A stretch of 57,180 nucleotides of DNA from Patescibacteria group bacterium (GCA_043817315.1 JBDRGY010000003.1:1-57180), one strand, 5' to 3'. Counted from the first letter of the stretch, positions 16,061 through 56,105 are shown. Program-made: numbers and translations. The notes: generated by a model not told the origin, from the sequence alone.

Positions 16061-16062
16061 CC

Positions 16063-22138: not shown

Positions 22139-22206
22139 ATATATAAAAAATGCCATAAAATTGGCATCTTTTTGGGCCTTGAGCCCGTCGTTCGCGAACG
22201 ACGGGC

Positions 22207-22234: not shown

Positions 22235-22292
22235 GGCCTGTTCGGCAATTTGCGGAATAATAGCCTAATAACACCGAAGGAGGGTACAGACG

Positions 22293-22850
22293 ATGAAGCG
22301 AGGATTGTGGCTATTACTGCTGATCGGCCTGGTAGTCGTCTGTCTGTTCGGCTGCATGCCGGAGGTGGAACAGCCGACAGACCGGCAGACCATTGCTGCT
22401 GTCATTAGCCGACCGGATGAGTGTCTGACTGACAAGCTGACCGAGTACAAAGGTGGCGTTGTTGTCCAGATGCACAAGAAGGGCAATAAGGCCATCGTAG
22501 TGGTGGCCCCGCTGCCCCTTCCTGATCTCCAGGAAAAAGGACAGTCGGCTAAGCGTTTATTGGTCGTCAGTATTCCGTCTTGGCAGTTCGGGGACCTGAG
22601 CATCGGGTCGATCATCAAGGCCACGGGTCGCCTGAAAACTATCGACCTTCAAAGCAGGACCATGTTCTACGTCGATGCTGCAGACGTTGAGGTGATCGAC
22701 CAGATCGACATCCATATGCCTGATTTCATGGCTATCACCGATGCTCTGATGCCTGATGGCAGTGGCTCCAACGACGACGACTTCTTCCTGATGCCCTTTA
22801 TGAACTCTCTCAATCCAACCCAAGATCTCTTGGACGATGACGGTTGGTAA
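22293..22850 (+). CDS. Putative lipoprotein (185 aa)
   Basis: Signal peptide with lipobox LFGC. Last G+C-rich gene of the island. Confidence 0.55.
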   Translation: MKRGLWLLLLIGLVVVCLFGCMPEVEQPTDRQTIAAVISRPDECLTDKLTEYKGGVVVQMHKKGNKAIVVVAPLPLPDLQEKGQSAKRLLVVSIPSWQFGDLSIGSIIKATGRLKTIDLQSRTMFYVDAADVEVIDQIDIHMPDFMAITDALMPDGSGSNDDDFFLMPFMNSLNPTQDLLDDDGW

Positions 22851-22876
22851 GAGAAACTTGGCGAGTTTCGGCTCGC

Positions 22877-22911
22877 GACCATTCAGTCAAGTGACTGGGT
22901 GGTCTTTTTTT
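22877..22911 (+). terminator. Rho-independent terminator at the right edge of the island
   Basis: About 12-bp stem (GACCATTCAGTC..GACTGGGTGGTC, includes G-U pairs) followed by TTTTTTT. Confidence 0.7.
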
Positions 22912-22969: not shown

Positions 22970-23110
22970 CTAGAGTACCCACCAGATAACTAGACCAATA
23001 ATGACCAGAGCTATGATAATCCCCCACATCATACCGGCTGATGATTTTTTTGGTTTTTGTTCCGCTGGCTGCTCTGCTTGAGGTTGTTGCTGTGGTTGTT
23101 GTTCGTCCAT
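22970..23110 (-). CDS. Small membrane protein (46 aa), paralog of the N-terminal module of 7931..8503
   Basis: Not in the track. MDEQQPQQQPQAEQPAEQKPKKSSAGMMWGIIIALVIIGLVIWWVL. Shares a 21-nt identical DNA stretch and the first 10 nt with the 5' end of the gene at 8503. Confidence 0.45.
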   Translation of the reverse strand: MDEQQPQQQPQAEQPAEQKPKKSSAGMMWGIIIALVIIGLVIWWVL

Positions 23111-30735: not shown

Positions 30736-31395
30736 TTATTTAGTACCAATAACCGACCATTGTCCGTGTTTATTCTTGGTCATTTTCAGCTTAGCAAATT
30801 GGTCAAACATTTTTGTTAACTCAGCTTTACCATAGAAACTATGAGGAGTACCGATTTCCGGGCCGACCAAAGGGACTACCGTGTTTTTGTTTAACCGCCT
30901 GTATTTTTTACAGGTCCGCCAGATCTTTAAGGCCCCTTGATCGGGAATGGAGATAAAAGTCTGGCCGTCGGGTAATAGAGCTTGGTGAATGTTGTTTATT
31001 AATTTCTGCAAATCCTTCTTGGGACCATGTTGGACTGTAGAAATAGAAATAATTAAATCGTATTTGTTTTTAGGTATGGTCATCTTAAACATATCAGCCC
31101 GCCAAATCCGGCCGGCTTCTTTGCCCAAAGCTTTTTTTGTCATCTTTACTGCAGTTTGGCTGGAGTCAACTCCGTCGGTTTGAAAGCCCAAAGAAGACAG
31201 ATAAACCAAGTAGCGCCCCTGGCCGCAACCAATATCCAGAACGTACTTTTTAGTAAGTTTAGTCTGCTTAATAAATTTTCTAAATTCGGGACTAACCTTT
31301 TCAATAAAACAAAAAGGAGTAACTCCGTCTCTAAGAGTTTTCCAAGTCTGGCCGCCTTTGTTTTTGGCTTGATAAATTTTATCCCAAGTGGTCAT
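30736..31395 (-). CDS. Class I SAM-dependent methyltransferase
   Basis: VLDIGCGQGRY motif I. Confidence 0.75.
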   Translation of the reverse strand: MTTWDKIYQAKNKGGQTWKTLRDGVTPFCFIEKVSPEFRKFIKQTKLTKKYVLDIGCGQGRYLVYLSSLGFQTDGVDSSQTAVKMTKKALGKEAGRIWRADMFKMTIPKNKYDLIISISTVQHGPKKDLQKLINNIHQALLPDGQTFISIPDQGALKIWRTCKKYRRLNKNTVVPLVGPEIGTPHSFYGKAELTKMFDQFAKLKMTKNKHGQWSVIGTK

Positions 31396-31396
31396 A

Positions 31397-31789
31397 TTAA
31401 TATTCTAAACACAAAGACTCTTGATTTACCGTTCCATTTAATACCTGCTTAACGCAATCTCTAACCAATTCTTCCGGATAGCAACTGCCAGTTAAGTTAG
31501 ACACTTCATTGCCCGCATCAATTGTCGTCTGCTGGTCAGCTGTTAGCTCGGGCGGGAAGCAAACCCCGGATTGGCATTGGCCGCCGTCAACACAGGCTTC
31601 CCCAGCTGGTCGGCTGGACAAAATACAGGTTTCTGCCTCGGCTTGCCATTCCCCCCAAGATTGCTCACAGGCCTCTTTACTTCTTTCCGGGTGATGCACA
31701 TCCAGTTGGGAATACCAAAAACCCAGGCCGATGCCGCCTATGCATATTACGGCAATAATTATTATGGGATTGCGTAGATTCTTATTCAT
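31397..31789 (-). CDS. Secreted Cys-rich protein
   Basis: Signal anchor and 8 Cys residues. Confidence 0.45.
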   Translation of the reverse strand: MNKNLRNPIIIIAVICIGGIGLGFWYSQLDVHHPERSKEACEQSWGEWQAEAETCILSSRPAGEACVDGGQCQSGVCFPPELTADQQTTIDAGNEVSNLTGSCYPEELVRDCVKQVLNGTVNQESLCLEY

Positions 31790-31795
31790 GATTTT

Positions 31796-32461
31796 TTAAT
31801 AAGGTTCGTCTAATTCACCTGTATTGGAATAACCCCGGCTTTCCCAATAACCTTCATAGTTCTCATCAGCCGAAAACTCGATCTGGTCAATCCACTTGAT
31901 CCATTTATAACCCCACTTGGTTTCAGCTATCAGCTGAAAAGGCCAGCCGCGTTCCGCCGGCAAGGTCACCTCATTCATTTTATAGGCCAGCAGGATATCG
32001 TTATCATAAAAATATTCTAAAGGAAAAGAAGTGGTATAACCATCCACCGCGTGCAAGATAACCACTTTAGTTTCCGTTTTGGGTTGCGCTTGATCTAATA
32101 GATCGCGCAGCAGAATACCTTCCCATAAAATTTTTGCCTCCCATCCTTCCACACAATAAAGAGTAACTACTTTTTTATAACTGGTATAGTCATTAATTAC
32201 TTGGTTATAAGTTAAAGATAGTGGCTGTTCAGCTAAGCCGGTGATACTTAGGCGGTAAGTTTCCTGATCTACCTGTTGCGGTCCTTTGATGGAGTTTTCC
32301 CGAAAGTCGTTGACGGAGGATAAATTTTCTCCTTCGTATTCCCTAACTTCAACAGTATCCAAGACAAGCTCGTTTTCCTGAGAAAATGTGAAATAATAAA
32401 TAGCACTAAGCACAAGGGCTATTGCTATAAAAGCGAGGATGATATTTCTTTTTTCTTTCAT
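31796..32461 (-). CDS. Molybdopterin-dependent oxidoreductase-like protein (sulfite oxidase fold)
   Basis: LYCVEGWEAKILWEGILLRDLL and WGYKWIKW motifs. Confidence 0.65.
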   Translation of the reverse strand: MKEKRNIILAFIAIALVLSAIYYFTFSQENELVLDTVEVREYEGENLSSVNDFRENSIKGPQQVDQETYRLSITGLAEQPLSLTYNQVINDYTSYKKVVTLYCVEGWEAKILWEGILLRDLLDQAQPKTETKVVILHAVDGYTTSFPLEYFYDNDILLAYKMNEVTLPAERGWPFQLIAETKWGYKWIKWIDQIEFSADENYEGYWESRGYSNTGELDEPY

Positions 32462-32529
32462 ATAGTTAGTATACTCTCTTTCTATAATATCAAAAGCACC
32501 CCGTATGCTCGCACTTTCCCGGGGTGGTT

Positions 32530-33258
32530 TTATTTAATGCCAGCTAACAGCAAGCTTTCTAGAGGAATGCCCTGATACTGCTGCTTGCTGATTGCTTTAT
32601 TTTCATTTAGTATTTTAACCTGAAAACCGGCTTGTTTAGCGATATTGATGTAGTCATCTCTAAGTAAAGCTCCGCCGACGCAGCCGGCCAGTAGTTCCTG
32701 ATCCTTCTTTTGTTCCTCACTTAGCTCTTCTAATAGCACAATATCAGACACAAAAATCTGGCCACCTGGTTTTAAGACTCGGAAAGCCTCCTGAAAAACT
32801 TTAGCTTTATCCGGGGCCAGGTTGATGACGCAATTGGAGATGATAATATCAGCTGAATTATCAGGTAGCGGCAAAGTATCGATGTCAGCCAGGATGAATT
32901 CAACATTATGGATATTATCTTTGGCAGCATTAGCTTTGGCCTTAGTCACCATTTCTTCCGTAAAATCAATGCCGATCACCTTTCCTTTATCTCCAACTTT
33001 TTTAGCAGCCAGAAAGCAATCAATACCGGCTCCGCTGCCCAGGTCAATAACCGTATTGCCTTCTTTTATACTGCTAAAAGCCACAGGATTACCACAACCT
33101 AGGCCCAGATCCGCTTCACCTACTTGCTGCAGTTGTTCCTCGCTATAGCCGATATTCTGAAAAATATTATCAGAGCAGGAACAAGAGCAGCCGCAGCCTT
33201 TACTTTGCTGCTTAGCGATCTGGGAATATTTATCTTTGACGATTTTTTTGGTGTCCAT
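32530..33258 (-). CDS. arsM: Arsenite S-adenosylmethyltransferase
   Basis: N-terminal Cys cluster GCGCSCSCS, LGLGCGNP, VIDLGSGAGIDCF. Confidence 0.8.
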   Translation of the reverse strand: MDTKKIVKDKYSQIAKQQSKGCGCSCSCSDNIFQNIGYSEEQLQQVGEADLGLGCGNPVAFSSIKEGNTVIDLGSGAGIDCFLAAKKVGDKGKVIGIDFTEEMVTKAKANAAKDNIHNVEFILADIDTLPLPDNSADIIISNCVINLAPDKAKVFQEAFRVLKPGGQIFVSDIVLLEELSEEQKKDQELLAGCVGGALLRDDYINIAKQAGFQVKILNENKAISKQQYQGIPLESLLLAGIK

Positions 33259-33321
33259 ATTGTTATTATTATAGCATATATAAAAACACCTCCCTTAGTT
33301 GGGAGATGTTTTTTGATCTGT

Positions 33322-33930
33322 TTAATCGTCGCCGTCCAAAAAACTATCAGACTGGAAGCTGGCCAGCATCTCGTCGAAATTATCGGCAACAGTTTCTCTA
33401 TCCTCGTTATTGGCAAATACACAATAAAAACCCAATCCGGTGGCTTCACCCAAAGCATAAACTGCCTCATTTATTTTGTTATCGCTTTCGGTAACAATTC
33501 TGACAGCGATATTATCAGCCAGCGTGGTGGTTGTTCGTTCCACCAGCGTTTCACTTTCTAAAATGAAATCAACGTATTCATCCAAAGTTTGGGCTAGGGC
33601 GTTGTTGAAACCGTAAGCCATACAGGTAATATCTTCTTCTGGTGATATAAATGTCCGACCGTCGTTATTGGTGGGCGGATCAGCTAAAGTCCAGCTTGCC
33701 GGATAGTTAAGGCTAAAACCGTAACGACTATTTTCATAAATGGACCATTGGGTTTCCTCAACCCCTTTATTAACTGTTGTGTTTTTTATTGCTGTTGTGT
33801 TGGTGTTGGTTACGTTGGTTTCTTCTCTGAGCTGATAGTTAAGGTCTATATACCCCCAGACAACAACTCCGATAATAACCACGGCGATGATAATTATTAT
33901 TACCAGTTGTTTTGTTCCTTGTTGGTTCAT
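33322..33930 (-). CDS. Membrane-anchored protein with an N/T-rich linker
   Basis: TM helix, then TNVTNTNTT linker, then a globular domain. Confidence 0.5.
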   Translation of the reverse strand: MNQQGTKQLVIIIIIAVVIIGVVVWGYIDLNYQLREETNVTNTNTTAIKNTTVNKGVEETQWSIYENSRYGFSLNYPASWTLADPPTNNDGRTFISPEEDITCMAYGFNNALAQTLDEYVDFILESETLVERTTTTLADNIAVRIVTESDNKINEAVYALGEATGLGFYCVFANNEDRETVADNFDEMLASFQSDSFLDGDD

Positions 33931-36024: not shown

Positions 36025-36285
36025 TTATTTCTTTGGTTTTGCCAACTTCTTTATTTTATTTACTGCTTTTTGGCCTTCTTTTTTGAACTGTTCGAACATA
36101 GAGATCATCCAGGCGGCTTCCGACTCAGGTATCATGCTAATAATCTGGGGGATTCTAGAAAATACTATCAAGGAATCTCCGGTATTAATGCCCAATTTCT
36201 TCCGTAAACTTACCGGAATAACCACTTGACCCTGGGACCCCACTTTCACTGATCCATGAATTTCAGGAGGGGTAGGTTGTTCCAT
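36025..36285 (-). CDS. AbrB/SpoVT-type DNA-binding protein
   Basis: GQVVIPVSLRKKLGINTGDSLIV swapped-hairpin motif. Confidence 0.6.
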   Translation of the reverse strand: MEQPTPPEIHGSVKVGSQGQVVIPVSLRKKLGINTGDSLIVFSRIPQIISMIPESEAAWMISMFEQFKKEGQKAVNKIKKLAKPKK

Positions 36286-36310: not shown

Positions 36311-36346
36311 TCTTATATTTCTTATATTTCTTATATTTCTTATAAT
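36311..36346. repeat. Tandem 9-bp repeat (TCTTATATT x3 plus TCTTATAAT)
   Basis: Read directly from the sequence. Lies 26 nt upstream of the AbrB-like start codon on the minus strand. Confidence 0.85.
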
Positions 36347-36449
36347 TAGTCTATATCAGCTGAAACTGCTGTCAACAATATTCTGTGGATAACCAAAAAC
36401 ATCTCCCGTTACAAGAGAGATGTTTTGATTAGTTTGATTTTTGAAAATT

Positions 36450-37480: not shown

Positions 37481-37735
37481 TTAAAGATAAATTTCGGCTA
37501 AGGCGCCCACTGCTAGAGTTATCCAGATTATAATTATCGCCAAGATTATTTTTATCACCGGCGGAATTGCCAAACCGAACTTTTTCTGGAAGGTAACGTT
37601 TAGCGGAGGAAAATAAACTAAAGAAAGAAGTAGAAAAGCAACTCCCAAACCAGGATCGTTACCCCGAAACAGGTTTAATAGACCGTTGGCCAAAACAACT
37701 AGACCAAATAGCCAACTGATTATTTTTGTTATCAT
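37481..37735 (-). CDS. Small membrane protein (leaderless start)
   Basis: Start moved to MITKIISW. The track extension (MVFWYNGV) is translated from the TGGTATAAT promoter itself. Confidence 0.5.
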   Translation of the reverse strand: MITKIISWLFGLVVLANGLLNLFRGNDPGLGVAFLLLSLVYFPPLNVTFQKKFGLAIPPVIKIILAIIIIWITLAVGALAEIYL

Positions 37736-37741: not shown

Positions 37742-37750
37742 ATTATACCA
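37742..37750 (-). promoter_or_regulatory. Extended -10 promoter (TGGTATAAT) 6 nt from the ATG
   Basis: Minus strand reads hairpin-TTTTTTGGTATAAT-ggcgtc-ATG. Confidence 0.55.
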
Positions 37751-37781
37751 AAAAACCACCCTGAGTGAAATCGAAGGGTGA

Positions 37782-37800
37782 TTTTTTGATGGGGTGGCTA
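37782..37800. repeat. Left 19-bp direct repeat of the arsenic island (tRNA-His 3' end plus trailer)
   Basis: ttttttgatggggtggcta is identical to 41977-41995. Imperfect similarity extends about 40 nt further left. Confidence 0.85.
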
Positions 37801-37804
37801 TCGG

Positions 37805-37819
37805 TCGCTTATTTTAACT
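37805..37819. repeat. Inner 15-bp direct repeat, left copy
   Basis: tcgcttattttaact is identical to 40852-40866. Confidence 0.8.
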
Positions 37820-37939
37820 CGTACATATAAGACAATCAAAAATAAACCATATTTAGACCACTTACTCAACCTATTTAATTTAATTCATAACTACCAATCA
37901 AATTGACTTGTCACCCGAATTAATAGATGATATTATAAC

Positions 37940-37961
37940 AATATCAACGGCCATTGATATT
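37940..37961. promoter_or_regulatory. Candidate ArsR operator
   Basis: AATATCAA-cggcca-TTGATATT inverted repeat 15 nt upstream of the arsR ATG. Confidence 0.5.
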
Positions 37962-37975
37962 AATTACAAATTTCT

Positions 37976-38287
37976 ATGCAAAAAAGCTGCTGTCAAGCAA
38001 ATTCCTCCCAAAGTCAGAAGATCAAACAAACATCCTCGTTTATAAGGTTGCTCAATGAACCAAATCGTTTGCGGATCCTCTGTCTCTTAAAGCAAGGGGA
38101 GTTGTGCGTTTGTGAGATATTCCAAGCCCTCAATTTGCCCCAAAATCTGACTTCCCACCACCTCAAAGTATTAAAGGATTTTGGTTTGATTTCTTCAAAA
38201 AAAGAGGGCCTGAAAGTTTTTTATAAATTAAACCGAGCCATATTAACAAGATATGCGGAATCATTAAATAAATTATTTAAACAATGA
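37976..38287 (+). CDS. arsR: ArsR/SmtB-family metalloregulator
   Basis: R..IL.LL..GELCVCE....L......SHHLK.L...GL motif. Confidence 0.85.
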   Translation: MQKSCCQANSSQSQKIKQTSSFIRLLNEPNRLRILCLLKQGELCVCEIFQALNLPQNLTSHHLKVLKDFGLISSKKEGLKVFYKLNRAILTRYAESLNKLFKQ

Positions 38288-38580
38288 AAAGACAATCAAT
38301 TCAAGTTTTGGGCTCTGGCTGCCCGACTTGCAAACAGCTCTTAGAAACTACTAAAAAAATTGCCAAAGAATTAAACATTGATACAGAAATTGAATATATC
38401 ACCGATGTGGCCAAATTAGTGGAAATGGGCGTAATGACCAGTCCCGCCTTAGCTGTTAATGGTAAACCGGTTTTAAGCGGAGGCGGCCATAGCGAAAACG
38501 ACATCAGGCAAGCCTTACAAAATAACTCCAGTCAAGAAAACGACGTTTCGACCGGTTGCTCTTGTGGTGGTAAATGTTAA
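38284..38580 (+). CDS. Thioredoxin-fold protein (redox-active disulfide protein 2 type)
   Basis: GSGCPTCK motif and a C-terminal CSCGGKC. Overlaps the arsR stop by 4 nt. Confidence 0.7.
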   Translation: MKRQSIQVLGSGCPTCKQLLETTKKIAKELNIDTEIEYITDVAKLVEMGVMTSPALAVNGKPVLSGGGHSENDIRQALQNNSSQENDVSTGCSCGGKC

Positions 38581-38595
38581 TTTAATCTATTAATT

Positions 38596-39576
38596 ATGGA
38601 TATATTTAGACCTGTTCAAATATTGGCTGATACGGCCACTAACAATTGGTTGGGCATCACTGATCATTATTGGGGTGAAGCCATCAATTTTTTTATTTAT
38701 GATGTAATCAAAATTGGTTTGCTTTTGATTGTGATAAATTTCGTTATGGCTATTACTCGTTACTATTTTCCAGTTGAAAAAATAAGAAGTATTTTAACGG
38801 GCCGTAAATGGTATGGTCTCGATTATTTCTTTGCCGCCCTGCTGGGAGTAATAACGCCTTTTTGCTCCTGCTCTTCCATCCCTTTATTTATCGGGTTTGT
38901 CAGCGCCGGCATACCTTTGGGCGTAACCTTCGCTTTTCTGATCGCTTCGCCGCTGGTCAACGAAGCTTCGCTTTTTATTTTCCCTTCTATTTTCGGGCTG
39001 AAGATGACCTTAACTTATAACAGTATCGGTATCGCCATTGCCATGCTGGCGGGGATGGTTATCCAAAGGTTAAAAATGGACAAGAATGTCAATCAAAATT
39101 TTCTGAAATTTAAAACCCAAAAGGAAGCCGTTAAAGATAACCAGGGCAGGGCCATTCCTTTAAAGAAAAGGCTGAAAATCTGGTGGCAGGACGGCCTGCA
39201 CATCTCCAAAAGCATCTTCCCCTACGTGATAGCCGGTGTCGGCTTAGGTGCTTTAATTCACGGATTTGTCCCCAGAGATTTTGTGGAAACATATTTGTCG
39301 ATAAAAGATTGGTGGGCAGTTCCAATGGCAGTGATTTTGGGAATGCCTCTATATGCAAATTCAGTAAGTGTAATTCCTGTTGTCGAAGCTATGACTGGCA
39401 AAGGCATACCACTTGGTACCTCTCTGGCTTTTATGACTGCCACAGTAACCCTGTCAATCCCCGGACTCTTAATTCTCAAAAAAGCTATGAACTGGAAATT
39501 ATTATCCGCCTTTATAGTTATTACAGCAATAGGGATTATGATTATTGGTTACTTTTTTAATTTCTTTAATTTTTAG
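38596..39576 (+). CDS. Permease (COG0701/ArsP-like)
   Basis: About 8 TM helices with a conserved TPFCSCSSIP motif. The context beside arsR and the thioredoxin-like gene is typical. Confidence 0.65.
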   Translation: MDIFRPVQILADTATNNWLGITDHYWGEAINFFIYDVIKIGLLLIVINFVMAITRYYFPVEKIRSILTGRKWYGLDYFFAALLGVITPFCSCSSIPLFIGFVSAGIPLGVTFAFLIASPLVNEASLFIFPSIFGLKMTLTYNSIGIAIAMLAGMVIQRLKMDKNVNQNFLKFKTQKEAVKDNQGRAIPLKKRLKIWWQDGLHISKSIFPYVIAGVGLGALIHGFVPRDFVETYLSIKDWWAVPMAVILGMPLYANSVSVIPVVEAMTGKGIPLGTSLAFMTATVTLSIPGLLILKKAMNWKLLSAFIVITAIGIMIIGYFFNFFNF

Positions 39577-39584
39577 ATAACAAT

Positions 39585-40031
39585 ATGCTGAAAAAATCAC
39601 TTTTTCTTTTCTTATTAAGTTTATCTGTTTTAATTCTTGCCGGTTGTGGTCAAACAGGTGGTAATCAATCGGTAGAAAGTAGTTCAGTCGATCTTGGGGC
39701 CGACAGAATTGAGGTTGTTCATTTTCACGCCACTCAGCAGTGTTGGTCGTGTATTACGGTTGGGGAACTTGCCTTGAAGACAATTCAAGAAAAATTTCCA
39801 GAGGAATATAAAAATGGACTTATTGTTTTTAAGGACATTAACGGCGAACTGCCGGAAAACAAAAACATTGTAATTAAATATCAAGCTAGTGGCTCATCGC
39901 TTTTTATTAACGCAATTACAAACGGAAGTGATAACATTCAAGAAGATACGACTGTTTGGCGCTATGTTTCCAATGAGACTCAATTCATTAACTATTTAGA
40001 AAATATATTAAAAACTCTTTTAGGCAAATGA
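39585..40031 (+). CDS. Lipoprotein with a CxxC motif (thioredoxin-like)
   Basis: Lipobox LAGC and CWSC. Confidence 0.5.
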   Translation: MLKKSLFLFLLSLSVLILAGCGQTGGNQSVESSSVDLGADRIEVVHFHATQQCWSCITVGELALKTIQEKFPEEYKNGLIVFKDINGELPENKNIVIKYQASGSSLFINAITNGSDNIQEDTTVWRYVSNETQFINYLENILKTLLGK

Positions 40032-40035
40032 CACG

Positions 40036-40752
40036 ATGGATTTTATCAATGTTTTAATAGACAATTACAATATTCCTATTGCAACTTCTTTCTTATTGGG
40101 AATTTTGACCTCAATAAGTCCCTGCCCCCTTGCTACAAACGTCACGGCTGTTGCCTATATTTCTAAAGAAATAAAGACGGTCAAAAACACTTTGCTTAAT
40201 GGCTTGTATTACACTTTGGGTCGGGGCATTAGCTACACGCTTTTGGCTACTTTAATTTATTTCGGCTTGTCATCGTTTCAGATTTCGGGAATTTTTCAAG
40301 GTTGGGGCGACAAAATTTTGGGACCCGTTTTGATTATTATCGGCCTGATAATTTTCGGAGTGATAAAGATCAAACTCAACGGACACAACCAGAAGATTGA
40401 AAATCTGAAAGAATGGCTGGCCGGCAAAGGATATATTGGCTCGTTGCTTTTGGGAGTTTTATTTGCTTTGGCTTTTTGTCCTTATAGCGGAGTTATATTC
40501 TTTGGTATATTGATGCCTTTGATTTTACGATCTAGCGAGGGTTTGTTACTGCCCCCTTTGTTTGCCCTCGGAACGGGACTGCCTGTAATAATTTTTTCAT
40601 TTCTGATTGCTTTTAGTATGCAAAAAGTGAGTAAAGCCTTCCAAGTCGTTCAGAGGGTAGAAAAGTTTATGCGGTATGCTGTTGCTTCCATATTTATTAT
40701 TACAGGGATTTATTATTTGCAGATTTTATTCAGATATTTAGCAAACTTGTAA
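40036..40752 (+). CDS. CcdA/DsbD-family thiol-disulfide transporter
   Basis: Six TM helices with SISPCPL and FCPYS motifs. Confidence 0.6.
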   Translation: MDFINVLIDNYNIPIATSFLLGILTSISPCPLATNVTAVAYISKEIKTVKNTLLNGLYYTLGRGISYTLLATLIYFGLSSFQISGIFQGWGDKILGPVLIIIGLIIFGVIKIKLNGHNQKIENLKEWLAGKGYIGSLLLGVLFALAFCPYSGVIFFGILMPLILRSSEGLLLPPLFALGTGLPVIIFSFLIAFSMQKVSKAFQVVQRVEKFMRYAVASIFIITGIYYLQILFRYLANL

Positions 40753-40851
40753 TAATTTGAACACTCATAATAAAAACACCTCCTATTTTAAAGGAGATGT
40801 TTTTTCCTTTGACTTCGAACACTTTGGTTCAGAGGCAAAGGTCCCTACCGA

Positions 40852-40866
40852 TCGCTTATTTTAACT
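40852..40866. repeat. Inner 15-bp direct repeat, right copy
   Basis: tcgcttattttaact, overlapping the acr3 stop codon. Confidence 0.8.
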
Positions 40867-41935
40867 AATTTGATGAGGATGTCGGAAACTGAAACTGTTT
40901 TTGATGGCGTTTCATTATACCAACAAGAGAAAGCATTACAGGAACTTCCACAAGTACGCCAACAACTGTAGCAAGTGTTGCACCCGAATTCATCCCAAAA
41001 AGGATAAGAGCAACTGCAACTGAAAGTTCAAAAAAATTGCTAGCTCCGATGAATACTGATGGAGCAGCCTCTTTGAATGAAATCTTTAATTTCCTTGCTC
41101 CAAGATACCCAAGGTAAAAAATAATGTATGTTTGTAGTACTAATGGAATTGCAATAAGTAGAATGTGAAGCGGATGTTGAATAATTCTTTCTCCTTGAAA
41201 GATGAAAAGTAAAACAAGCGTAACAAGTAAACCAGCTGGTGTGACCCATTCAATTTTTTTAATAAATTTTTCTTCAAGCCACGAAACACCTATTTTATGT
41301 ATAGTGATAAAACGTGTTGCCATGGCCAATCCGAGTGGTAGAGCTACATAGAATAGTATTGAGAAAAAAATCGTATCCAGAGGCACTGGAAAATCAGTTG
41401 TTACTCCAAGGAGTAATTTTCCAAGTGGTGCAAATAAGATAAGTATTATTAAATCATTAACTGTGACTTGCATTAGTGCATAGTTAAGATTTCCTCGTGC
41501 TAAATATGTCCAAACAAAAACCATAGCTGTGCACGGCGCTAAGCCTAGTAGAATCATACCGGCAATGTACTCGCTTTGAAGTGCCACCGGAATAAAGTTG
41601 GCAAAAATAAACCTCATAAATAGCCAGGCAATAAAGGCCATCGTAAACGGTTTGATGGCCCAGTTGACAACTAACGTAAGCCAGAGCGGTTTTGTATTAT
41701 TGCGTAGTTTTTTTATCTCACCAAAATTTATCTTAAGCATAATCGGATACATCATCAAGAGAAGCACTATAGCAACCGGAATTGAAACGTTTGCAATCTC
41801 AAAAGAACCCAGTGTGTTAGAGATTCTTGGAAAAGAATATCCAATAGCTGTGCCAATTGCTATACAGAGGAATACCCACAATGACAGGTATCGATTGAAG
41901 AAATCAATTTTTCTTTCGTCTTCGAATTCTTTCAT
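40865..41935 (-). CDS. acr3: Arsenite efflux transporter ACR3
   Basis: The N-terminus (FFNRYLSLWVF) and the 10-TM layout are typical of ACR3. Start moved to MKEFEDE, 6 nt after TGGTATAGT. Confidence 0.8.
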   Translation of the reverse strand: MKEFEDERKIDFFNRYLSLWVFLCIAIGTAIGYSFPRISNTLGSFEIANVSIPVAIVLLLMMYPIMLKINFGEIKKLRNNTKPLWLTLVVNWAIKPFTMAFIAWLFMRFIFANFIPVALQSEYIAGMILLGLAPCTAMVFVWTYLARGNLNYALMQVTVNDLIILILFAPLGKLLLGVTTDFPVPLDTIFFSILFYVALPLGLAMATRFITIHKIGVSWLEEKFIKKIEWVTPAGLLVTLVLLFIFQGERIIQHPLHILLIAIPLVLQTYIIFYLGYLGARKLKISFKEAAPSVFIGASNFFELSVAVALILFGMNSGATLATVVGVLVEVPVMLSLVGIMKRHQKQFQFPTSSSN

Positions 41936-41941
41936 AGTTTT

Positions 41942-41950
41942 ACTATACCA
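41942..41950 (-). promoter_or_regulatory. Extended -10 promoter (TGGTATAGT) 6 nt from the acr3 ATG
   Basis: Minus strand reads hairpin-TTTTTTGGTATAGT-aaaact-ATG. It is a duplicate of the 37742 module. Confidence 0.55.
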
Positions 41951-41976
41951 AAAAACCATCCTAACAAATAGCATGG

Positions 41977-41995
41977 TTTTTTGATGGGGTGGCTA
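41977..41995. repeat. Right 19-bp direct repeat of the arsenic island
   Basis: Identical to 37782-37800. Confidence 0.85.
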
Positions 41996-42024
41996 GAGGG
42001 AATTGAACCCTCATCACCAGTGCC
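41985..42024 (-). pseudogene. Orphan 3' half of a second tRNA-His (anticodon loop to CCA)
   Basis: 39/40 identical to 42091-42130. The single change (G to A in CUAGCCACC) is complementary to the change in the 5' fragment at 42238-42299. Confidence 0.7.
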
Positions 42025-42090
42025 ATCCCGCAACCAGTCGCTACGCTCCGGTGCGGGACAGGCAGACTTCGTATCCAGAAAGGTGGCCAC

Positions 42091-42166
42091 TGGGGTGGCC
42101 AGAGGGAATTGAACCCTCATCACCAGTGCCACAGACTGGTGCACTAACCATTGTGCTATGGCCACC
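42091..42166 (-). tRNA. tRNA-His (GUG), with encoded G-1 and CCA
   Basis: Hand-folded cloverleaf: G-1, GUGGCCA/UGGCCAC acceptor, GCAC/GUGC D stem, CCAGU-CUGUGGC-ACUGG anticodon arm, GAGGG-UUCAAUU-CCCUC T arm, C73-CCA. Confidence 0.9.
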
Positions 42167-42237
42167 TTTCTGGATATAAGTTTATAATATACTTGTGCCC
42201 TGCCCTGAACTGCGAGCGGTAGTGAGCTAGTTTAGGG

Positions 42238-42299
42238 ACTAACCATTGCCCGCCTCGCGTCGGCTCGCAACGCGAGTCGAGGCGGGTGCTATAGCCACC
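42238..42299 (-). pseudogene. Orphan 5' part of the second tRNA-His, carrying a 38-nt G+C-rich hairpin in the D arm
   Basis: GGUGGCUAUAGCA, then the insert 42249-42286 (CCCGCCUCG...CGAGGCGGG), then CAAUGGUUAGU. Similarity to the intact gene ends after that point. Confidence 0.65.
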
Positions 42300-42352: not shown

Positions 42353-43198
42353 CTATGCACGAAAATACCTTTTGAAATCTTTCTTTTTTTGTTCATCCCA
42401 ATCACGTGATTTTTCTTCCCACGATCCTGTTGCTTTGTCAATGGTCTCTTGATCTAAACCAGAAAATTTGTCTATTATGACGCCAAGTTCAGCACCAAGA
42501 CCAGCTTCCAATAAGGCGTTGGCGATTTCTGGGTGATCCGACTCTTGGAAATTAAAGTTGTCAAAATATCCTATAATATTAGCAGATTCTCCCACTCCCG
42601 CCTTTCCCGCCTCTATTATTTTAAGAGCGGTATCTTTGTGATTAAGGCCTGGAAATTTTTCTAAATTTCTAAGAACTACTCCTCCTTGACCGACACCAAT
42701 TAGATTGGTAGCAGCTTCTTCTGAATCAAGACCTTGAAATTTTTCCAGATTATCTTCTATCGCCATTGCTATCTGTTTAGCTTTAGCAGGATTGCTTTTT
42801 ATTTCTTCAATCAATAGCGAAAAAGCCGCTCGATGGTCAGTGCCTCTAAATTTATCTATATTTGCGGGTACCGTTTCCCCATGCTTTGATTCTATAAGCG
42901 CTCGAATAAAATCTGGATGATCATTTTCATCAAAATGTTTTAGATTATTAAATAAGGGTGCACCACCAAAAAGCCAGGCAAGATTTAAGCCGAATTCTTT
43001 ATGTAGAGCAGGATCCAATTCACGAAGGATAGGTTTCACTTGGAAAATTGCTCTTGAATAACCTTCATTCTGCAGATAATTCATAACCTTACCGATAGAC
43101 TTTCTCTGTTCTTCGGTCAATTCATTTTGGTCGGTTGGTGTTTGTTCTCCAGTTAATTCATCAGGATTAACCAGTTGTTGTTCTGGCTTTTCAGGCAT
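42353..43198 (-). CDS. Hypothetical repeat protein (281 aa)
   Basis: Reiterated ~35-aa units (..KF.GLD/N....A..LI..G.G..). No family recognised. Confidence 0.5.
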   Translation of the reverse strand: MPEKPEQQLVNPDELTGEQTPTDQNELTEEQRKSIGKVMNYLQNEGYSRAIFQVKPILRELDPALHKEFGLNLAWLFGGAPLFNNLKHFDENDHPDFIRALIESKHGETVPANIDKFRGTDHRAAFSLLIEEIKSNPAKAKQIAMAIEDNLEKFQGLDSEEAATNLIGVGQGGVVLRNLEKFPGLNHKDTALKIIEAGKAGVGESANIIGYFDNFNFQESDHPEIANALLEAGLGAELGVIIDKFSGLDQETIDKATGSWEEKSRDWDEQKKKDFKRYFRA

Positions 43199-43218
43199 AG
43201 TTTTATGATTAATTATTT

Positions 43219-43365
43219 TCGTCTGGTACCCTCGAGAGCCCGCCTACTCCCACGTCCGCGGGATTCGGCGGATCTCCGCTGCGCTCCGAGAATCTCACTT
43301 TCCGCCCGACTCGCCTGGTACCCTCGAGAGGAATCCCCGCCAGAGGCGGGTCCGCCGTACCTTTT
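43219..43365. repeat. G+C-rich structured segment with two 16-nt direct repeats
   Basis: CTGGTACCCTCGAGAG occurs at 43223-43238 and 43315-43330. CCCGCC...GGCGGG hairpins are present. TCGTCTGGTA also matches the 3' end and trailer of tRNA-Arg at 43415-43424. Confidence 0.5.
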
Positions 43366-43418
43366 ACATCTAAATTTAAAGTGGCGGAGAACCTCTCGTA
43401 TTTAGATTTTTTATCGTC

Positions 43419-43536: not shown

Positions 43537-44490
43537 TCAAGACTTCTTGCGGCGTTTATCATGGAATGATTGAAACACTTCTTTTAGCTTTTTGTCGGTA
43601 ACATGAGTATAGATTTGAGTAGTGGTGATGGAAGCATGACCCAACAGTGCTTGAACCGAACGGATATCAGCACCGGAAGACAGAAGGTCAGTGGCGTAAG
43701 TATGCCTTAGGGTATGGGGAGTGATTCTTTTAGTGATGCCGGCAACTTTAGCGTATTTATTTACCATCCTTTGAATAGAGCGAGGCGTTAATCTGGTATC
43801 CTTCTCTTGATTTCTTTTGAAGGCGCGGTCGTGGCGGACAAACAGTGACGGAAAAACGTCATTTCTTTTATCTTGATATTGTTTTAGCCAGTACTTAGCC
43901 TGGTTAGATATAAAGACTACTCTTAATTTTCCGCCTTTGCCCCGAACGGTGAATTCATCCTTTTTTAAACTGACATGCTCGATGTCCAAGTTGGATAATT
44001 CAGAAACTCGTAAACCGGTAGAAAAAAGCATTTCCAAAATCGCTTTGTCACGCAGTTGGATAATTCGGGCCTCTTTAGTTTTTAGGGGAGCTTCCAAAAA
44101 TCTTTCCAAATCATCTCCTTCCAGAAATTCCACTTGGCGGTCCGGTTGTTTGCTCAGTTCTATTTTTTCTGCGGCTAAAGATTTGATGTCTCTTTTAGAA
44201 AGATATTTCAAAAAGGCGCGTAAAGCAATCAAATGATAATTTTGGGTAGACTTTTTGAGATGCTGGTCTTTGGGATCGGGTGATTGAGTATTAGTCAACC
44301 GATTTAGATAAAGACGGAACTCCCGCACTTTATCTTGAGTGATCTGCTCTGGTTTTTGAATTTTTGCCCAGATAATAAAACGAGTCAGATAAAAATCATA
44401 ATTCTGCCGGGTGCGCTGGCTGCGGCCTCGTTCGATTTCTAGATAGTCTAGAAAGTCTTCGAGCAGGGAGTTGAGGTTGGGGGATGGCAT
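43537..44490 (-). CDS. Tyrosine recombinase (XerC/XerD-like)
   Basis: HTLRHTYATDLL...GADIRSVQALLGHASITTTQIYTHV and an N-terminal SAM-like domain. Start taken at MPSPNL; the first 16 codons of the track ORF fall in a heptamer-repeat region. Confidence 0.85.
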   Translation of the reverse strand: MPSPNLNSLLEDFLDYLEIERGRSQRTRQNYDFYLTRFIIWAKIQKPEQITQDKVREFRLYLNRLTNTQSPDPKDQHLKKSTQNYHLIALRAFLKYLSKRDIKSLAAEKIELSKQPDRQVEFLEGDDLERFLEAPLKTKEARIIQLRDKAILEMLFSTGLRVSELSNLDIEHVSLKKDEFTVRGKGGKLRVVFISNQAKYWLKQYQDKRNDVFPSLFVRHDRAFKRNQEKDTRLTPRSIQRMVNKYAKVAGITKRITPHTLRHTYATDLLSSGADIRSVQALLGHASITTTQIYTHVTDKKLKEVFQSFHDKRRKKS

Positions 44491-53641: not shown

Positions 53642-55162
53642 TTGAAAAAGGTGTCAGCCAAAGTATTTTCCGCTGCAGTAATCGGCCTGGACAGCGAATT
53701 AATCGAGGTAGAAGTAGATATTTCCTCGGGGCTGCCTAATTTTTTGATCGTAGGTTTACCCGATGCCGCTGTTCAAGAATCCAGAGAAAGAGTAAGGTCA
53801 GCTATCAAAAATTCCGGTTTTGATTTTCCCAAAACCCGGGTAACTGTAAACTTAGCCCCGGCTGATCTCAAAAAAGTTGGACCGGCTTATGATCTACCCA
53901 TTGCCCTTTCTATCTTGATTCAAAGAAAGGTGGTTGATTTCGACTTTTATCAAAAAATATTTATAGGCGAATTAGCTCTTGACGGCAGCCTGAGGAAAGT
54001 AAACGGGATTTTACCAATTGTATTATTGGCCAAGCAACTGGCAATAGGAGAAGTCTATCTTCCAGTGGACAATGCCAAAGAGGCAAGCCTGGTTGAAGGT
54101 ATGAAAATTTTTTCCGTTAATAATTTAAAACAGCTTGTTGGTCATTTTAAAAGAAAGCCTCTGGACCGGTATCAGCCGAAACAGATTAAACCCCCATTAT
54201 TAAACTACGCTCACGACTTTTCCCGGATCAGAGCCCAGGATCATGCCAAGCGGGCTTTAGAAATCGCCGCAGCTGGAGGACACAACGTTTTATTGTCAGG
54301 ACCTCCGGGCTCGGGAAAAACCTTATTAGCCAAATCTCTGCCCTCGATACTGCCCATCTTGACTAACGACGAATCTTTACAGGTTACCAAGATCTACTCA
54401 GTATCCGGCTTGATCCGGACCGATAAACCGTTAATTTCTCAGAGACCCTTCCGTTCTCCCCATCATACTTCCTCCGGAGTTTCCCTGATTGGCGGAGGCA
54501 GTTTTCCCAAACCTGGTGAGATTTCTTTGGCCCACCGCGGCGTTTTGTTCTTAGACGAACTAAGTGAATTCCCCCGCAAGGTTTTAGAAAACTTGCGTCA
54601 GCCCCTGGAAGACGGAATAATAACTGTAGCCAGAGCAGCCGGCACTGTTACTTACCCGGCCGAATTTATTTTAGTAGCAGCCACTAACCCTTGTCCCTGT
54701 GGCTTTGCCACTGATCCGGAGAAAGAGTGTGTTTGTACTCCGGCCCAAATCATCAAATACCAGAAAAAGATTTCAGGACCCCTGCTGGATCGTATTGACT
54801 TACACGTGGAAGTACCCCGGCTCAGCTTCCAGAAGATTACCAGGGATAAACGAACTGAATCTTCAGACACTATCCGTCAACGGGTGGAAGCGGCCAGACA
54901 AATTCAAAAAAAACGTTTTGCAGACGAGAAGACAATCAGTAACGCCGAAATGGACAACCGCTTAATTGAGAAATTTTGTGATTTAGATAAGCAATGTACT
55001 CAATTATTAAAGAAGGCAGTTAACCAATTTTTTCTATCAGTCCGTTCTTACATGAGAATCTTGAAAATGGCTCGGACCATCGCTGATCTGGAGAACAGTA
55101 ATAAAATTTCAATTACTCATATTGCTGAAGCTCTACAATATCGATTGAAGGATTACCATTAG
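53642..55162 (+). CDS. comM: Mg-chelatase-like ATPase ComM/YifB
   Basis: N-terminal Lon-like domain, Walker A GPPGSGKT, VLFLDE, C-terminal ChlI-like region. Confidence 0.9.
   Translation: MKKVSAKVFSAAVIGLDSELIEVEVDISSGLPNFLIVGLPDAAVQESRERVRSAIKNSGFDFPKTRVTVNLAPADLKKVGPAYDLPIALSILIQRKVVDFDFYQKIFIGELALDGSLRKVNGILPIVLLAKQLAIGEVYLPVDNAKEASLVEGMKIFSVNNLKQLVGHFKRKPLDRYQPKQIKPPLLNYAHDFSRIRAQDHAKRALEIAAAGGHNVLLSGPPGSGKTLLAKSLPSILPILTNDESLQVTKIYSVSGLIRTDKPLISQRPFRSPHHTSSGVSLIGGGSFPKPGEISLAHRGVLFLDELSEFPRKVLENLRQPLEDGIITVARAAGTVTYPAEFILVAATNPCPCGFATDPEKECVCTPAQIIKYQKKISGPLLDRIDLHVEVPRLSFQKITRDKRTESSDTIRQRVEAARQIQKKRFADEKTISNAEMDNRLIEKFCDLDKQCTQLLKKAVNQFFLSVRSYMRILKMARTIADLENSNKISITHIAEALQYRLKDYH
55108..55156. 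repeat. 49-bp direct repeat, copy 1 (native-looking 3' end of comM)
   Basis: Identical to 56057-56105 when checked base by base. Confidence 0.95.
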
Positions 55163-56056: not shown

Positions 56057-56105
56057 TTCAATTACTCATATTGCTGAAGCTCTACAATATCGATTGAAGG
56101 ATTAC
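56057..56105. repeat. 49-bp direct repeat, copy 2 (displaced comM 3' end, reads ...KDY stop)
   Basis: Identical to 55108-55156. Confidence 0.95.

Follow-up and report, generated by a model that had tools for sequence, protein, structure and literature searches.

A two-module arsenic-resistance islet lacking an integrase gene, located next to a rearranged tRNA-His gene on a Patescibacteria chromosome

Background

Genomic islands that target tRNA genes leave a signature consisting of the tDNA and a displaced fragment of it, and the crossover subsites recognised within tRNA genes are the T-stem/acceptor-stem junction (subsite 'J'), the anticodon loop and the T loop (PMC4383910). For the ArsEFG proteins we follow Chen, Zhang and Rosen 2019, as they are cited in PMC9144182. 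The Patescibacteria have tiny genomes, and the routes by which they gain genes are poorly documented. Xer-dependent (dif/IMEX) modules are flanked by 28-bp sites that have two 11-nt Xer-binding arms.

We analyzed a 57,180-nucleotide stretch from a Patescibacteria group bacterium (GCA_043817315.1, JBDRGY010000003.1:1-57180), referred to below as the window. Its segment 37801-41976 is a mosaic arsenic-resistance islet of about 4.2 kb, made up of two modules and lacking an integrase; the chromosome is one of the Patescibacteria (CPR), and the islet has a rearranged tRNA-His gene just upstream of it. The islet is an ordinary and well-delimited example of an already known type; more out of the ordinary is the neighbouring tRNA-His gene, which is split by small GC-rich hairpin insertions and also by an insertion that carries its replacement. 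The locus offers a tangible example of metalloid-resistance genes that are modular, have probably been exchanged horizontally and reside at a tRNA gene with no integrase of their own; should their mobility be demonstrated, it would point to trans-acting recombination in Patescibacteria.

Like tRNA-targeted (Islander-type) islands, the islet lies downstream of a tRNA gene and has a cognate 3' fragment in the same orientation at its far end, the repeated fragment starts at the recognised T-stem/acceptor-stem subsite, the cargo is an adaptive resistance cluster, and additional tRNA fragments nearby suggest that the site has been used repeatedly. Unlike those islands, it has no tyrosine integrase of a non-Xer, non-integron kind (the sole recombinase lies outside and is Xer-type), it is only 4.2 kb long and known here from sequence alone, its base composition does not deviate (GC of 0.35-0.46 in the islet versus 0.35-0.45 in the flanks), and its adjacent tRNA gene was not regenerated, being a disrupted copy replaced by an intact nested gene of a different allele. 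The resemblance to arsEFG/ArsP/Acr3 operons includes an ArsR with a CVC motif, Acr3 and ArsG equivalogs, and proteins of the ArsE, ArsF and ArsP_1 families; unlike the known operons, the bracketed segment has no arsC, arsM is 4.5 kb away, and acr3 is convergent, with its own promoter and no ArsR operator. Integrase-less modules, a short recurring boundary motif and an adjacent tyrosine recombinase gene also recall integron cassettes and dif modules. Unlike integrons, this locus lacks an IntI-specific signature, and its cassette ends yielded no imperfect-palindrome attC; unlike dif modules, it showed no two-armed dif-like site at the islet. In relatives the pattern was not seen.

Gene content and predicted regulation

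Profile searches assigned all six ORFs between the two copies of a 19-bp direct repeat to ars genes. A first-pass annotation of this DNA had found no integrase inside the islet, which this result bears out, and its gene list is now refined to arsR, an ArsE-family gene, ArsP_1, an ArsF-family gene, ArsG and Acr3. No integrase gene was detected among these six ORFs or in the corresponding islet of L004, another Patescibacteria MAG contig. Module 1 is an acr3 cassette on the minus strand with its own terminator and promoter, and module 2 is an ArsR-controlled plus-strand operon of arsR, arsE, the ArsP_1 permease gene, arsF and arsG. The genes and signals are as follows:

37941..37960, plus strand: predicted ArsR operator, ATATCAA-N6-TTGATAT, between the arsR -10 box and start codon
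37976..38287, plus strand: arsR, ArsR/SmtB metalloregulator (NF033788, 86.8 bits versus a cut-off of 55; ELCVCE motif)
38284..38580, plus strand: arsE, MTH895/ArsE-family thioredoxin-like protein (TIGR00412, 81 bits versus 62; Pfam Thioredoxin_3; CPTC motif)
38596..39576, plus strand: ArsP_1-family permease (PF03773, 206 bits)
39585..40031, plus strand: arsF-family lipoprotein (NF040494, 90.9 bits versus a cut-off of 60; lipobox and CWSC motif)
40036..40752, plus strand: ArsG-family transporter of DsbD_2 fold (NF040495 equivalog, 286 bits versus a cut-off of 200)
40763..40796, both strands: bidirectional terminator hairpin between arsG and acr3, of the recurrent AAAAACAyCTCC...GGAGrTGTTTTT type
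40865..41935, minus strand: acr3, arsenite efflux transporter of 356 aa (TIGR00832 equivalog, 377.6 bits versus a cut-off of 282.8)
32530..33258, minus strand: arsM, arsenite methyltransferase, outside the bracketed segment (NF008823, 310 bits versus a cut-off of 263)

Members of the ArsE, ArsF and ArsG families are thus encoded together, with the ArsP_1 permease gene between arsE and arsF. The acr3 start was placed at the ATG at 41935, which gives a protein of 356 aa that matches its homologs, since the ORF start at 41974 falls inside a terminator hairpin.

A promoter-like site (37908-37936) lies upstream of arsR. The palindrome listed above is unique in the window and also precedes arsR in L004 and in four other contigs (L015, L016, L017 and L018); judged by its position and recurrence, it is likely the ArsR operator. 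From the family memberships, binding of As(III) would release ArsR from this palindrome and switch on the five-gene operon, while Acr3, expressed from a separate promoter with no such operator, would export arsenite. Organoarsenicals would be handled by ArsE, ArsF, ArsG and the ArsP-type permease, and methylarsenite could be supplied by the product of the distant arsM.

Relatives of the two modules

The same arrangement of acr3, a boundary motif (R, described below), arsR-arsE-permease and a further R is present in L004, where it has other flanks and no tRNA. Homology between the window and L004 runs from 41990 to 40840 at 88.5% identity and from 39587 to 38055 at 75%, and it ends at the two repeats that bracket the islet; because it stops there, the DNA between them behaves as a separate unit that can be transferred. 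Third-codon-position identity to L004 is 77% for acr3 versus 47-54% for arsR, arsE and the permease gene, and these values support different histories for the two modules.

Acr3 is 91% identical to a Patescibacteria homolog. Its nearest relatives beyond L004 and L005 include those of DPANN archaea and Methanosarcina, at 72-78% identity, and acr3 looks horizontally acquired in this comparison. L004 and L005, the contigs with the two closest acr3 homologs, are short and carry Patescibacteria-type neighbours. More than 120 homologs of the ArsP_1 permease were found at 72-87% identity, and those with a named source were mostly from Patescibacteria.

The five-gene operon occurs alone and in unrelated contexts in other contigs that encode permeases 85-87% identical to that of the islet. 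The arsR-arsE-permease-arsF-arsG operons of L012, L013, L015 and L017 comprise the same five gene families, and L008-L010 have a colinear arsR-E-P-acr3-F-G operon of the same six families. The operator palindrome is common to the islet and L015-L018 and is absent from L012 and L013. These Patescibacteria operon loci (L008-L010, L012, L013, L015 and L017) lie in unrelated contexts and have no tRNA-His, R motif or flanking repeat, and their DNA similarity to the window is confined to coding sequences.

No empty site was found in the collections searched, in which no close relative has one. Synteny with the left flank was seen at none of 80 tRNA-His loci, and searches with the 281-aa flank gene returned no record and no homolog. 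Sequencing reads, which gave about 4x coverage or were too divergent, yielded no excision junction or empty site. The left junction of the islet is crossed by an independent assembly. Low-depth contigs obtained in a groundwater run cover portions of acr3 and arsE, of the permease gene and the left-flank genes, and of the nested tRNA-His, with approximately 85-99% identity; should they all derive from a single relative, the arrangement would not be a recent insertion specific to this strain.

Direct repeats, boundary motif and terminator-promoter cassettes

The repeats and cassettes that delimit the modules are:

37742..37787, minus strand: cassette of an 84-aa membrane-protein gene (37481-37735), terminator hairpin plus TGGTATAAT
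37782..37800, minus strand: 19-bp repeat, left copy, exact, reading TAGCCACCCCA (tRNA-His nt 66-76) and the trailer TCAAAAAA
37793..37819, minus strand: boundary repeat R, outer copy, AGTTAAAATAAGCGACCGATAGCCACC on the minus strand, overlapping the 19-mer by 8 nt
40840..40866, minus strand: boundary repeat R, inner copy, immediately following the acr3 stop codon, where the two modules meet
41941..41983, minus strand: the cassette of acr3 itself, made up of a terminator hairpin and a TGGTATAGT extended -10 box; L004 keeps it upstream of its acr3 too
41977..41995, minus strand: 19-bp repeat, right copy, the 3' end and trailer of a displaced outer tRNA-His fragment

The 19-mer TTTTTTGATGGGGTGGCTA occurs exactly twice in the window, in direct orientation and 4195 nt apart, and both copies are exact at the coordinates first reported. 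It consists of the 11-nt 3' end of tRNA-His followed by an 8-nt trailer, and by structure prediction its tRNA part begins with nt 66, the base that opens the 3' acceptor strand at the T-stem/acceptor-stem junction. Two matches to the 19-mer arose in 0 of 100 shuffles, and the expectation from Markov shuffles was 0.02 repeated 19-mers per window, which puts the repeat well outside what chance would give. Only 11 nt of the repeat are tRNA-specific, since the other eight are the A-tract of a recurrent terminator family, and no second copy of the 11-mer was found in 26 other low-GC loci that have the same tRNA-His end.

The inner 15-bp repeat TCGCTTATTTTAACT was likewise confirmed as exact, with exactly two occurrences in the window. 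It is weak evidence when taken alone, because about three repeated 15-mers are expected per window by chance in Markov shuffles; with up to two mismatches allowed, two matches were reached in 3 of 100 shuffles. The repeat extends to 27 nt at 85% identity (23/27; 37793-37819 versus 40840-40866), and we refer to this longer unit as R. The L004 homology block ends at the inner copy (40840), and R recurs at the arsR-distal boundary of L004, matching the boundary of that related islet. In the window, three units in succession have R, complete or degenerate, at their distal end (40866, 37819 and about 36845), and L004 has such motifs at three places. The proposal that the inner repeat records two successive insertions in this genome did not survive the comparison, as L004 already has both the repeat and the nesting, and the two-module nesting thus predates arrival.

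Similarity continues beyond the 19-mer, as first noted, with 37744-37762 and 41944-41962 being 95% identical, but this stretch is part of a terminator-promoter family that the window carries four times on its minus strand (at 33971, 36791, 37754 and 41954). Two further cassettes in L004, identical over 48 nt, flank a 138-aa gene. The hairpins that adjoin the two 19-mer copies differ. It had also been proposed that acr3 is driven by a copy of the promoter of the gene at 37735. We rejected this duplicated promoter as a feature: the element is the terminator-promoter cassette of acr3 itself, kept with acr3 in the 88.5%-identical block of L004 and drawn from a recurrent family.

The tRNA-His locus

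Three tRNA-His elements lie beyond the right repeat:

41985..42025, minus strand: displaced 3' part of an outer tRNA-His copy (nt 35-76), 41 nt, 98% identical, A67 allele
42091..42166, minus strand: intact inner tRNA-His(GTG), placed at 42091-42165 by ARAGORN and Rfam, with encoded G-1 and CCA, C6:G67 allele
42189..42299, minus strand: 5' part of the outer tRNA-His copy (nt -1 to about 33), T6 allele

The 3' fragment starts in the anticodon loop, a matching 5' fragment is present, and the two share compensatory T6/A67 alleles, versus C6/G67 in the intact gene. The outer tRNA-His copy, the proposed target, is disrupted: its anticodon loop has received 163 nt of inserted DNA, and the tRNA-His now in use lies intact within that insertion. 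Two GC-rich insertions (42249-42286 and 42199-42237) in turn interrupt the 5' part. The intact gene is found 106 nt further along than the 41-nt fragment, with a perfect 18-nt inverted repeat at its flanks (42072-42089 and 42159-42176); it ends in TGGCCACCCCA, and its trailer differs from the one in the 19-mer. These nested elements suggest that the tRNA-His locus has been a repeated target of recombination. The nested tRNA-His was also found in a second sample, and a 5'-half version in a second lineage.

The first-pass annotation had placed an insertion at the 3' end of tRNA-His and had read the 19-mer as the last 11 nt of that gene plus its trailer. The repeat does hold that tRNA end, but its right copy lies in the separate 41-nt fragment; what it adjoins is the displaced 3' part of the disrupted outer copy, and the functional tRNA-His is not abutted.

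The neighbouring recombinase

43537..44490, minus strand: Xer-type tyrosine recombinase, part of the conserved backbone and not of the islet

A tyrosine recombinase is indeed present near the islet, as first annotated, but its place in the first-pass interpretation did not hold up, as the gene is of a housekeeping Xer type and is syntenic in contigs that have no islet. The backbone of pnp-rpsO and Xer-tRNA-Arg-tRNA-His was found in at least eight contigs without the islet, and the islet is located in variable DNA directly downstream of the conserved Xer, tRNA-Arg and tRNA-His genes. The recombinase passes the NCBIfam XerA-type model (232.6 bits versus a cut-off of 220) and fails the integron-integrase model TIGR02249 (135.6 bits versus a cut-off of 265). 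The NCBIfam description of the XerA-type model reads 'site-specific tyrosine recombinase/integron integrase'.

Proposed origin of the islet and alternatives

The reading to which we give about an even chance is that a unit of two modules, already joined before arrival, entered a tRNA-His gene by site-specific recombination of the tyrosine-recombinase type at the T-stem/acceptor-stem junction, and that the target copy is the disrupted one. Such an insertion would have displaced the last 11 nt of the tRNA with 8 nt of trailer, creating the distal copy of the 19-bp repeat, and the 37742..37787 cassette would be the original tRNA-His trailer. The recombinase, not encoded by the islet, would either have been lost or act in trans. 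Identity of the unconstrained trailer is not something that an integrase model demands, and counts against the insertion reading. Also against it stand the lack of an integrase gene here and in L004, a base composition like that of the flanks, the failure to find an empty site or excision junction, and the share of the 19-mer that is terminator A-tract.

It is possible, though rather less probable, that there was no site-specific insertion and that recombination, homologous or illegitimate, shuffled an old variable region, as could happen after DNA uptake. Crossovers would have taken place between the recurrent intergenic cassettes (A-tract, hairpin, T-tract and extended -10 box), and the 19-mer would be the identity patch of an exchange or a cassette copy that happened to include a tRNA end. 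The number of such cassettes in the window and in L004 suits this explanation, the differing hairpins beside the 19-mer copies are as expected of a short conversion or crossover patch, and there is neither an integrase nor a compositional signal to account for. Accessory-looking genes, arsM among them, lie on both sides of the left repeat, and because they continue beyond it the left repeat may not mark the boundary between island and core. Shuffling does not readily explain why the repeat stops exactly at tRNA nt 66, a known integrase subsite, why the 11-mer is missing from the other two cassette copies of the window and is never duplicated in the 26 other loci, or why L004 homology gives out at the two ends of the bracketed segment.

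We consider it quite improbable that the locus is a capture platform, in which a conserved Xer-like recombinase acting in trans stacks integrase-less cassettes at the tRNA-His T/acceptor junction, each cassette ending in an R motif and a tRNA-His-like core, in the manner of an integron or of Xer-dependent dif modules. The recombinase gene is always beside tRNA-Arg and tRNA-His and its product passes the XerA-type model, R recurs at the distal ends of successive units, and one arm of R, TTATTTTAACT, is presumably similar to a XerD-binding arm; yet no second, palindromic arm was seen in the sequence of R. Other Xer-tRNA-Arg-tRNA-His loci have no repeated cores or R motifs downstream of tRNA-His, the recombinase falls well short of the integron-integrase cut-off, and the pnp-rpsO/Xer synteny fits a housekeeping dimer-resolution enzyme. 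Were a platform of this kind real, it would constitute a tRNA-anchored, integron-like system in ultrasmall CPR genomes, and the splitting of the nested tRNA-His by GC-rich hairpin elements may have arisen as a side effect of that recombination.

An origin of the repeats in chance matching of AT-rich intergenic DNA is hardly credible, since the shuffle counts that would permit it for the 15-mer effectively refute it for the 19-mer, which contains the GC-rich tRNA end, and the 15-mer itself extends into R and is kept at the same module boundary in L004.

Gene content of the islet

The 4.2-kb segment at 37801-41976, between two copies of a 19-mer, lies at a tRNA-His recombination hot spot; it is a real and well-delimited islet of arsenic-resistance genes and has probably been horizontally exchanged. 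Its genes were assigned with Pfam and NCBIfam profiles.

Arsenic-related genes of the window (where two bit scores are given, the second is the cut-off)
37976-38287, +, arsR, with an ELCVCE motif
38284-38580, +, MTH895/ArsE-family thioredoxin-like protein (TIGR00412, 81 bits vs 62)
38596-39576, +, ArsP_1-family permease (PF03773, 206 bits)
39585-40031, +, ArsF-family lipoprotein (NF040494, 90.9 bits vs 60)
40036-40752, +, ArsG-family transporter (equivalog, 286 bits vs 200)
40865-41935, -, Acr3 (equivalog, 377.6 bits vs 282.8)
32530-33258, outside the bracket, arsenite methyltransferase, arsM (NF008823, 310 bits vs 263)

The profiles confirmed the ars content that the first-pass annotation had placed between the repeats and refined two of its assignments; the genes described there as a CxxC lipoprotein and a CcdA-like gene match, and are therefore, ArsF and ArsG. 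PMC9144182 credits the description of the ArsEFG system to Chen, Zhang and Rosen 2019. Neither Pfam nor NCBIfam detected an integrase or transposase inside the islet, which bears out the earlier remark that it holds no integrase. The neighbors of arsM are genes for a TehB-like methyltransferase and a molybdopterin oxidoreductase, in a minus-strand row at 30736-33930 (PsbP-like protein, ArsM, molybdopterin oxidoreductase, TehB-like methyltransferase), and metalloid genes therefore reach beyond the repeat-bracketed islet.

The palindrome ATATCAA-N6-TTGATAT, unique in the window, lies at 37941-37960 between the -10 box and the start codon of arsR. Since it was also found upstream of arsR in five other Patescibacteria loci, we consider it the likely ArsR operator; acr3 has no such site.

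Flanking repeats

The 19-mer TTTTTTGATGGGGTGGCTA was found exactly twice in the 57 kb, at 37782-37800 and 41977-41995, as originally reported; no shuffle reproduced the pair, and Markov shuffles put the chance expectation at 0.02 repeated 19-mers per window. The reported imperfect extension of the similarity towards the -10 boxes was also found (37744-37762 versus 41944-41962, 95%). The inner 15-mer, TCGCTTATTTTAACT, likewise has exactly two copies in the window, with about three repeated 15-mers expected by chance, but is strengthened by an extension to 23 of 27 matching nucleotides (37793-37819 versus 40840-40866; the R motif) and by its recurrence at the corresponding position in a related islet, the arsR-distal boundary of the Patescibacteria contig L004. 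A dif-like or Xer site at R was rejected, since only a single arm matched and the palindrome was absent.

Terminator-promoter cassettes and the acr3 promoter

An A-tract, a hairpin and a GGTTTTTTG(G/C)TATA motif occur together four times on the minus strand of the window (33971, 36791, 37754 and 41954) and twice in L004, and alignment showed that they form a family. In L004 the cassette ahead of acr3 is conserved together with the gene, and it therefore travels with acr3. This conservation and the recurrence of the family ruled out the proposal that acr3 is driven by a copied promoter of the 84-aa membrane-protein gene left of the islet (37481-37735, minus strand). What sets the two 19-mer copies apart within the family is their 11-nt tRNA end, a second copy of which was present in none of 26 other low-GC loci with the same tRNA-His end.

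In L004, a 138-aa membrane-protein gene just upstream of acr3 lies between two identical 48-nt copies of a direct repeat (283-335 and 848-900) made up of a tRNA-like GACCCCA, a terminator hairpin and a -10 box. Rfam found no tRNA in the tRNA-like fragments upstream of acr3 in L004 and in L005, a second contig with a close Acr3, and the resemblance there (CGACCCCA versus CCACCCCA) is only suggestive. Near-identical terminator stems (AAAAACAyCTCC ... GGAGrTGTTTTT) recur across different Patescibacteria genomes; they were seen in the window (36395-36418 and 40763-40796), in L004 (5129-5170), in L005 (467-512, 1645-1682 and 2181-2216) and in the comparison loci L065 and L084, where the hairpin immediately follows tRNA-His.

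Two modules with different histories

The two closest Acr3 homologs (91% and 88% identical) are encoded on L004, which is 5.4 kb long, and L005, respectively. On L004, acr3, a non-homologous thioredoxin-DsbD fusion gene, an ArsP_1 permease gene, arsE and arsR occur in a window-like arrangement; the flanking genes differ from those of the window and no tRNA is present. Alignment by blastn produced one block of 88.5% identity between window position 41990, which falls within the 19-mer, and position 40840, at the left edge of the 27-mer, and another of 75% identity over 39587-38055. From these limits and the place of R in L004, both ends of the bracket are therefore homology limits between the two genomes. 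Third-codon identity to L004 was 77% for acr3 and 47-54% for arsR, arsE and the permease gene. On this comparison the islet consists of two modules with different histories, the acr3 cassette and the arsR operon, with R at their junction. The inner repeat had been taken as a sign of two successive insertions; the repeat itself stands, but the nesting was not made in that way in this genome because L004 is already nested.

The five-gene operon alone is common, with more than 120 permease homologs at 72-87% identity, mostly from Patescibacteria among those with a source name. Stand-alone copies lie in unrelated contexts, with similarity limited to coding sequence, and another MAG carries a colinear arsR-E-P-acr3-F-G operon. 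Beyond L004 and L005, Acr3 relatives at 72-78% identity include Methanosarcina and DPANN archaea (Nanoarchaeota, Woesearchaeota, Altiarchaeota and Micrarchaeota), which suggests a past inter-domain transfer of acr3.

Rearrangement of tRNA-His

ARAGORN and Rfam both called tRNA-His(GTG) at 42091-42165 on the minus strand, leaving 96 nt to the closest base of the right 19-mer copy. This copy does not adjoin the functional gene, as had been supposed, but terminates a 41-nt stretch (41985-42025) that separately duplicates tRNA nt 35-76 with 98% identity and whose 3' end lies 106 nt from that of the intact gene. The matching 5' part lies upstream of the intact gene at 42299-42189, in the pieces GGTGGCTATAGCA, CAATGGTTAGT and GCACAAGT, interrupted by two GC-rich insertions of 38 and 39 nt. 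When joined, these outer pieces make a complete tRNA-His with its anticodon loop split by approximately 163 nt, and they share a compensatory pair, T6:A67, that is C6:G67 in the inner gene. The insert holds the intact tRNA-His, flanked by a perfect 18-nt inverted repeat; at the finest reading it consists of a 121-nt piece that contains the intact gene and has a 4-nt repeat, AAGT, at its ends, together with a GC-rich element of 37 nt. The computed fold of the 329-nt tRNA-His region is far more stable than those of shuffled sequences (-147.8 kcal/mol, z = -7.25). The nested arrangement is not an assembly artefact, because contigs from an unrelated groundwater run span 41996-42130 (1 mismatch) and 42102-42248 (9 mismatches).

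In a second Patescibacteria lineage (loci L028, L060 and L069), the intact tRNA-His is preceded by a pseudo 5' half of tRNA-His, with a GC-rich insertion that begins CCCGCC at the same D-loop position. Given the split outer copy, the nested gene and this second lineage, tRNA-His here has been a recombination target more than once, and so the islet adjoins a displaced fragment of a repeatedly targeted gene. The pseudo half of the second lineage (L069 1297-1468, about 170 nt upstream) has a different anticodon-stem allele, and no 3' fragment was found downstream in the three loci. The 38-nt GC-rich hairpin in the D-loop of the outer tRNA-His (42249-42286) is high-copy in groundwater run X3 (depth ~433, at least five contigs diverging on both sides), is present with a 30-nt loop insertion in marine run X1 and was absent from the other 116 fetched loci. 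Rfam gave no match in the insertions, which led us to reject a group I intron or a member of any other Rfam family there, and our literature search for tRNA introns in CPR turned up no papers.

The neighboring recombinase and backbone

The tyrosine recombinase pointed out near the islet is present at 43537-44490, and scores with NCBIfam as XerC, XerD or XerA. Its relatives, at 57-68% identity on Patescibacteria contigs, lie directly upstream of tRNA-Arg(TCT) and tRNA-His, which are sometimes only 2 nt apart, with pnp and rpsO on the other side wherever contigs extend far enough; none of these contigs has ars genes or a duplicated tRNA-His end. From this synteny the recombinase is thus a conserved backbone member, and its Xer-type scores and its place in islet-free relatives led us to reject it as the islet's own integrase. 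Islander does not count Xer enzymes as island integrases, an explicit exclusion (PMC4383910).

Extra DNA has entered the backbone of the window in several places, namely a GC-rich block of 200 nt with two repeats resembling the tRNA-Arg end, an orphan gene, the tRNA-His rearrangement and the ars islet. The block (43198-43418, minus strand) immediately follows tRNA-Arg(TCT) and has two units each ending CTCTCGAGGGTACCAG(A/G)CGA, mimicking the tRNA-Arg 3' end and trailer TACCAGACGA. The orphan, a 281-aa ORF at 42353-43198 (minus strand), separates tRNA-Arg from tRNA-His, two genes that adjoin each other in some relatives; neither Pfam nor NCBIfam matched it, and a search of 5.8 billion proteins returned no homolog.

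Searches for an empty site and mobile carriers

As an empty-site probe, the 281-aa protein yielded no record or homolog, and a genome scan with the Xer gene found relatives at 63% identity only, with other DNA downstream of tRNA-His. A metagenome scan with the 3' 25-mer of tRNA-His returned 80 loci, mostly high-GC genomes whose tRNA-His happens to share the same terminal 25 nt, and none had left-flank synteny, ars genes or the duplicated tRNA end. The window genome was found in two marine runs (~4x, fragmented contigs), and a groundwater relative diverges left of 37940. Plasmid and phage collections did not contain the islet, giving weak acr3 or permease coding similarity or nothing, and a viral-contig scan with the T-arm 24-mer matched phage tRNA-Gly genes only. 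A 121-aa flank protein belongs to a modest family (245 cluster representatives) that is uninformative on the islet.

Origin of the islet

The best reading is site-specific entry of a pre-assembled acr3 and ars unit into tRNA-His; the first-pass interpretation is partly supported. The tRNA part of the 19-mer begins at nt 66, where the 3' acceptor strand has its first base; this is the T-stem/acceptor junction, which is one of three crossover subsites of tRNA-targeting tyrosine integrases (PMC4383910), and the anticodon-loop subsite is where the 41-nt fragment begins. Displaced 5' tRNA fragments are known in 159 of 3919 islands (PMC4383910). The unit would have recombined into tRNA-His without an integrase of its own, with an implied empty-site junction ...CCCTCTAGCCACCCCATCAAAAAATCACCCTTCG... 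and an implied outward-facing junction of the excised circle ...AAGCGACCGA-TAGCCACCCCATCAAAAAA-CCATGCTATT...; the sequence comparisons show the repeats, the gene families, the limits of homology, the unequal divergence of the two modules and the backbone synteny, and from there we infer the mechanism, direction and timing of this event, as we do the regulation and substrates of the genes. Against site-specific insertion are the lack of an integrase, an empty site and a compositional signal, the accessory genes past the left repeat, and low-depth groundwater contigs that match parts of the islet and flanks (acr3, arsE, the permease gene, the nested tRNA-His and left-flank genes). Should those contigs represent a single relative, the arrangement would not be a recent insertion specific to this strain.

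The main rival explanation is recombination among recurrent intergenic cassettes, of the family seen in the window and L004, that would need no dedicated site-specific step. Capture by the neighboring Xer-like enzyme is speculative, and support for it in relatives is lacking. An integron was ruled out by NCBIfam profile scores.

Other features of the window

A 13-kb block at 9500-22900 has a GC content of 50-58%, compared with about 40% elsewhere, and co-directional genes for a PP2C phosphatase, an NMNAT/NAD-kinase-like fusion, two SLOG-domain proteins, an NAPRTase, an NAD synthase and several unknowns. A 21-nt exact repeat lies on either side of it (8456-8476 and 23039-23059), in or near the 5' end of a small minus-strand gene on each side. 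Upstream of an AbrB/MazE-like gene (36025-36285) is a tandem 9-nt repeat, TCTTATATT, of about 3.8 copies (36311-36344). Large gene(s) at 1-4900 have many internal repeats of 16-26 nt, and a 49-nt exact direct repeat (55108-55156 and 56057-56105) was found between two neighboring plus-strand genes.
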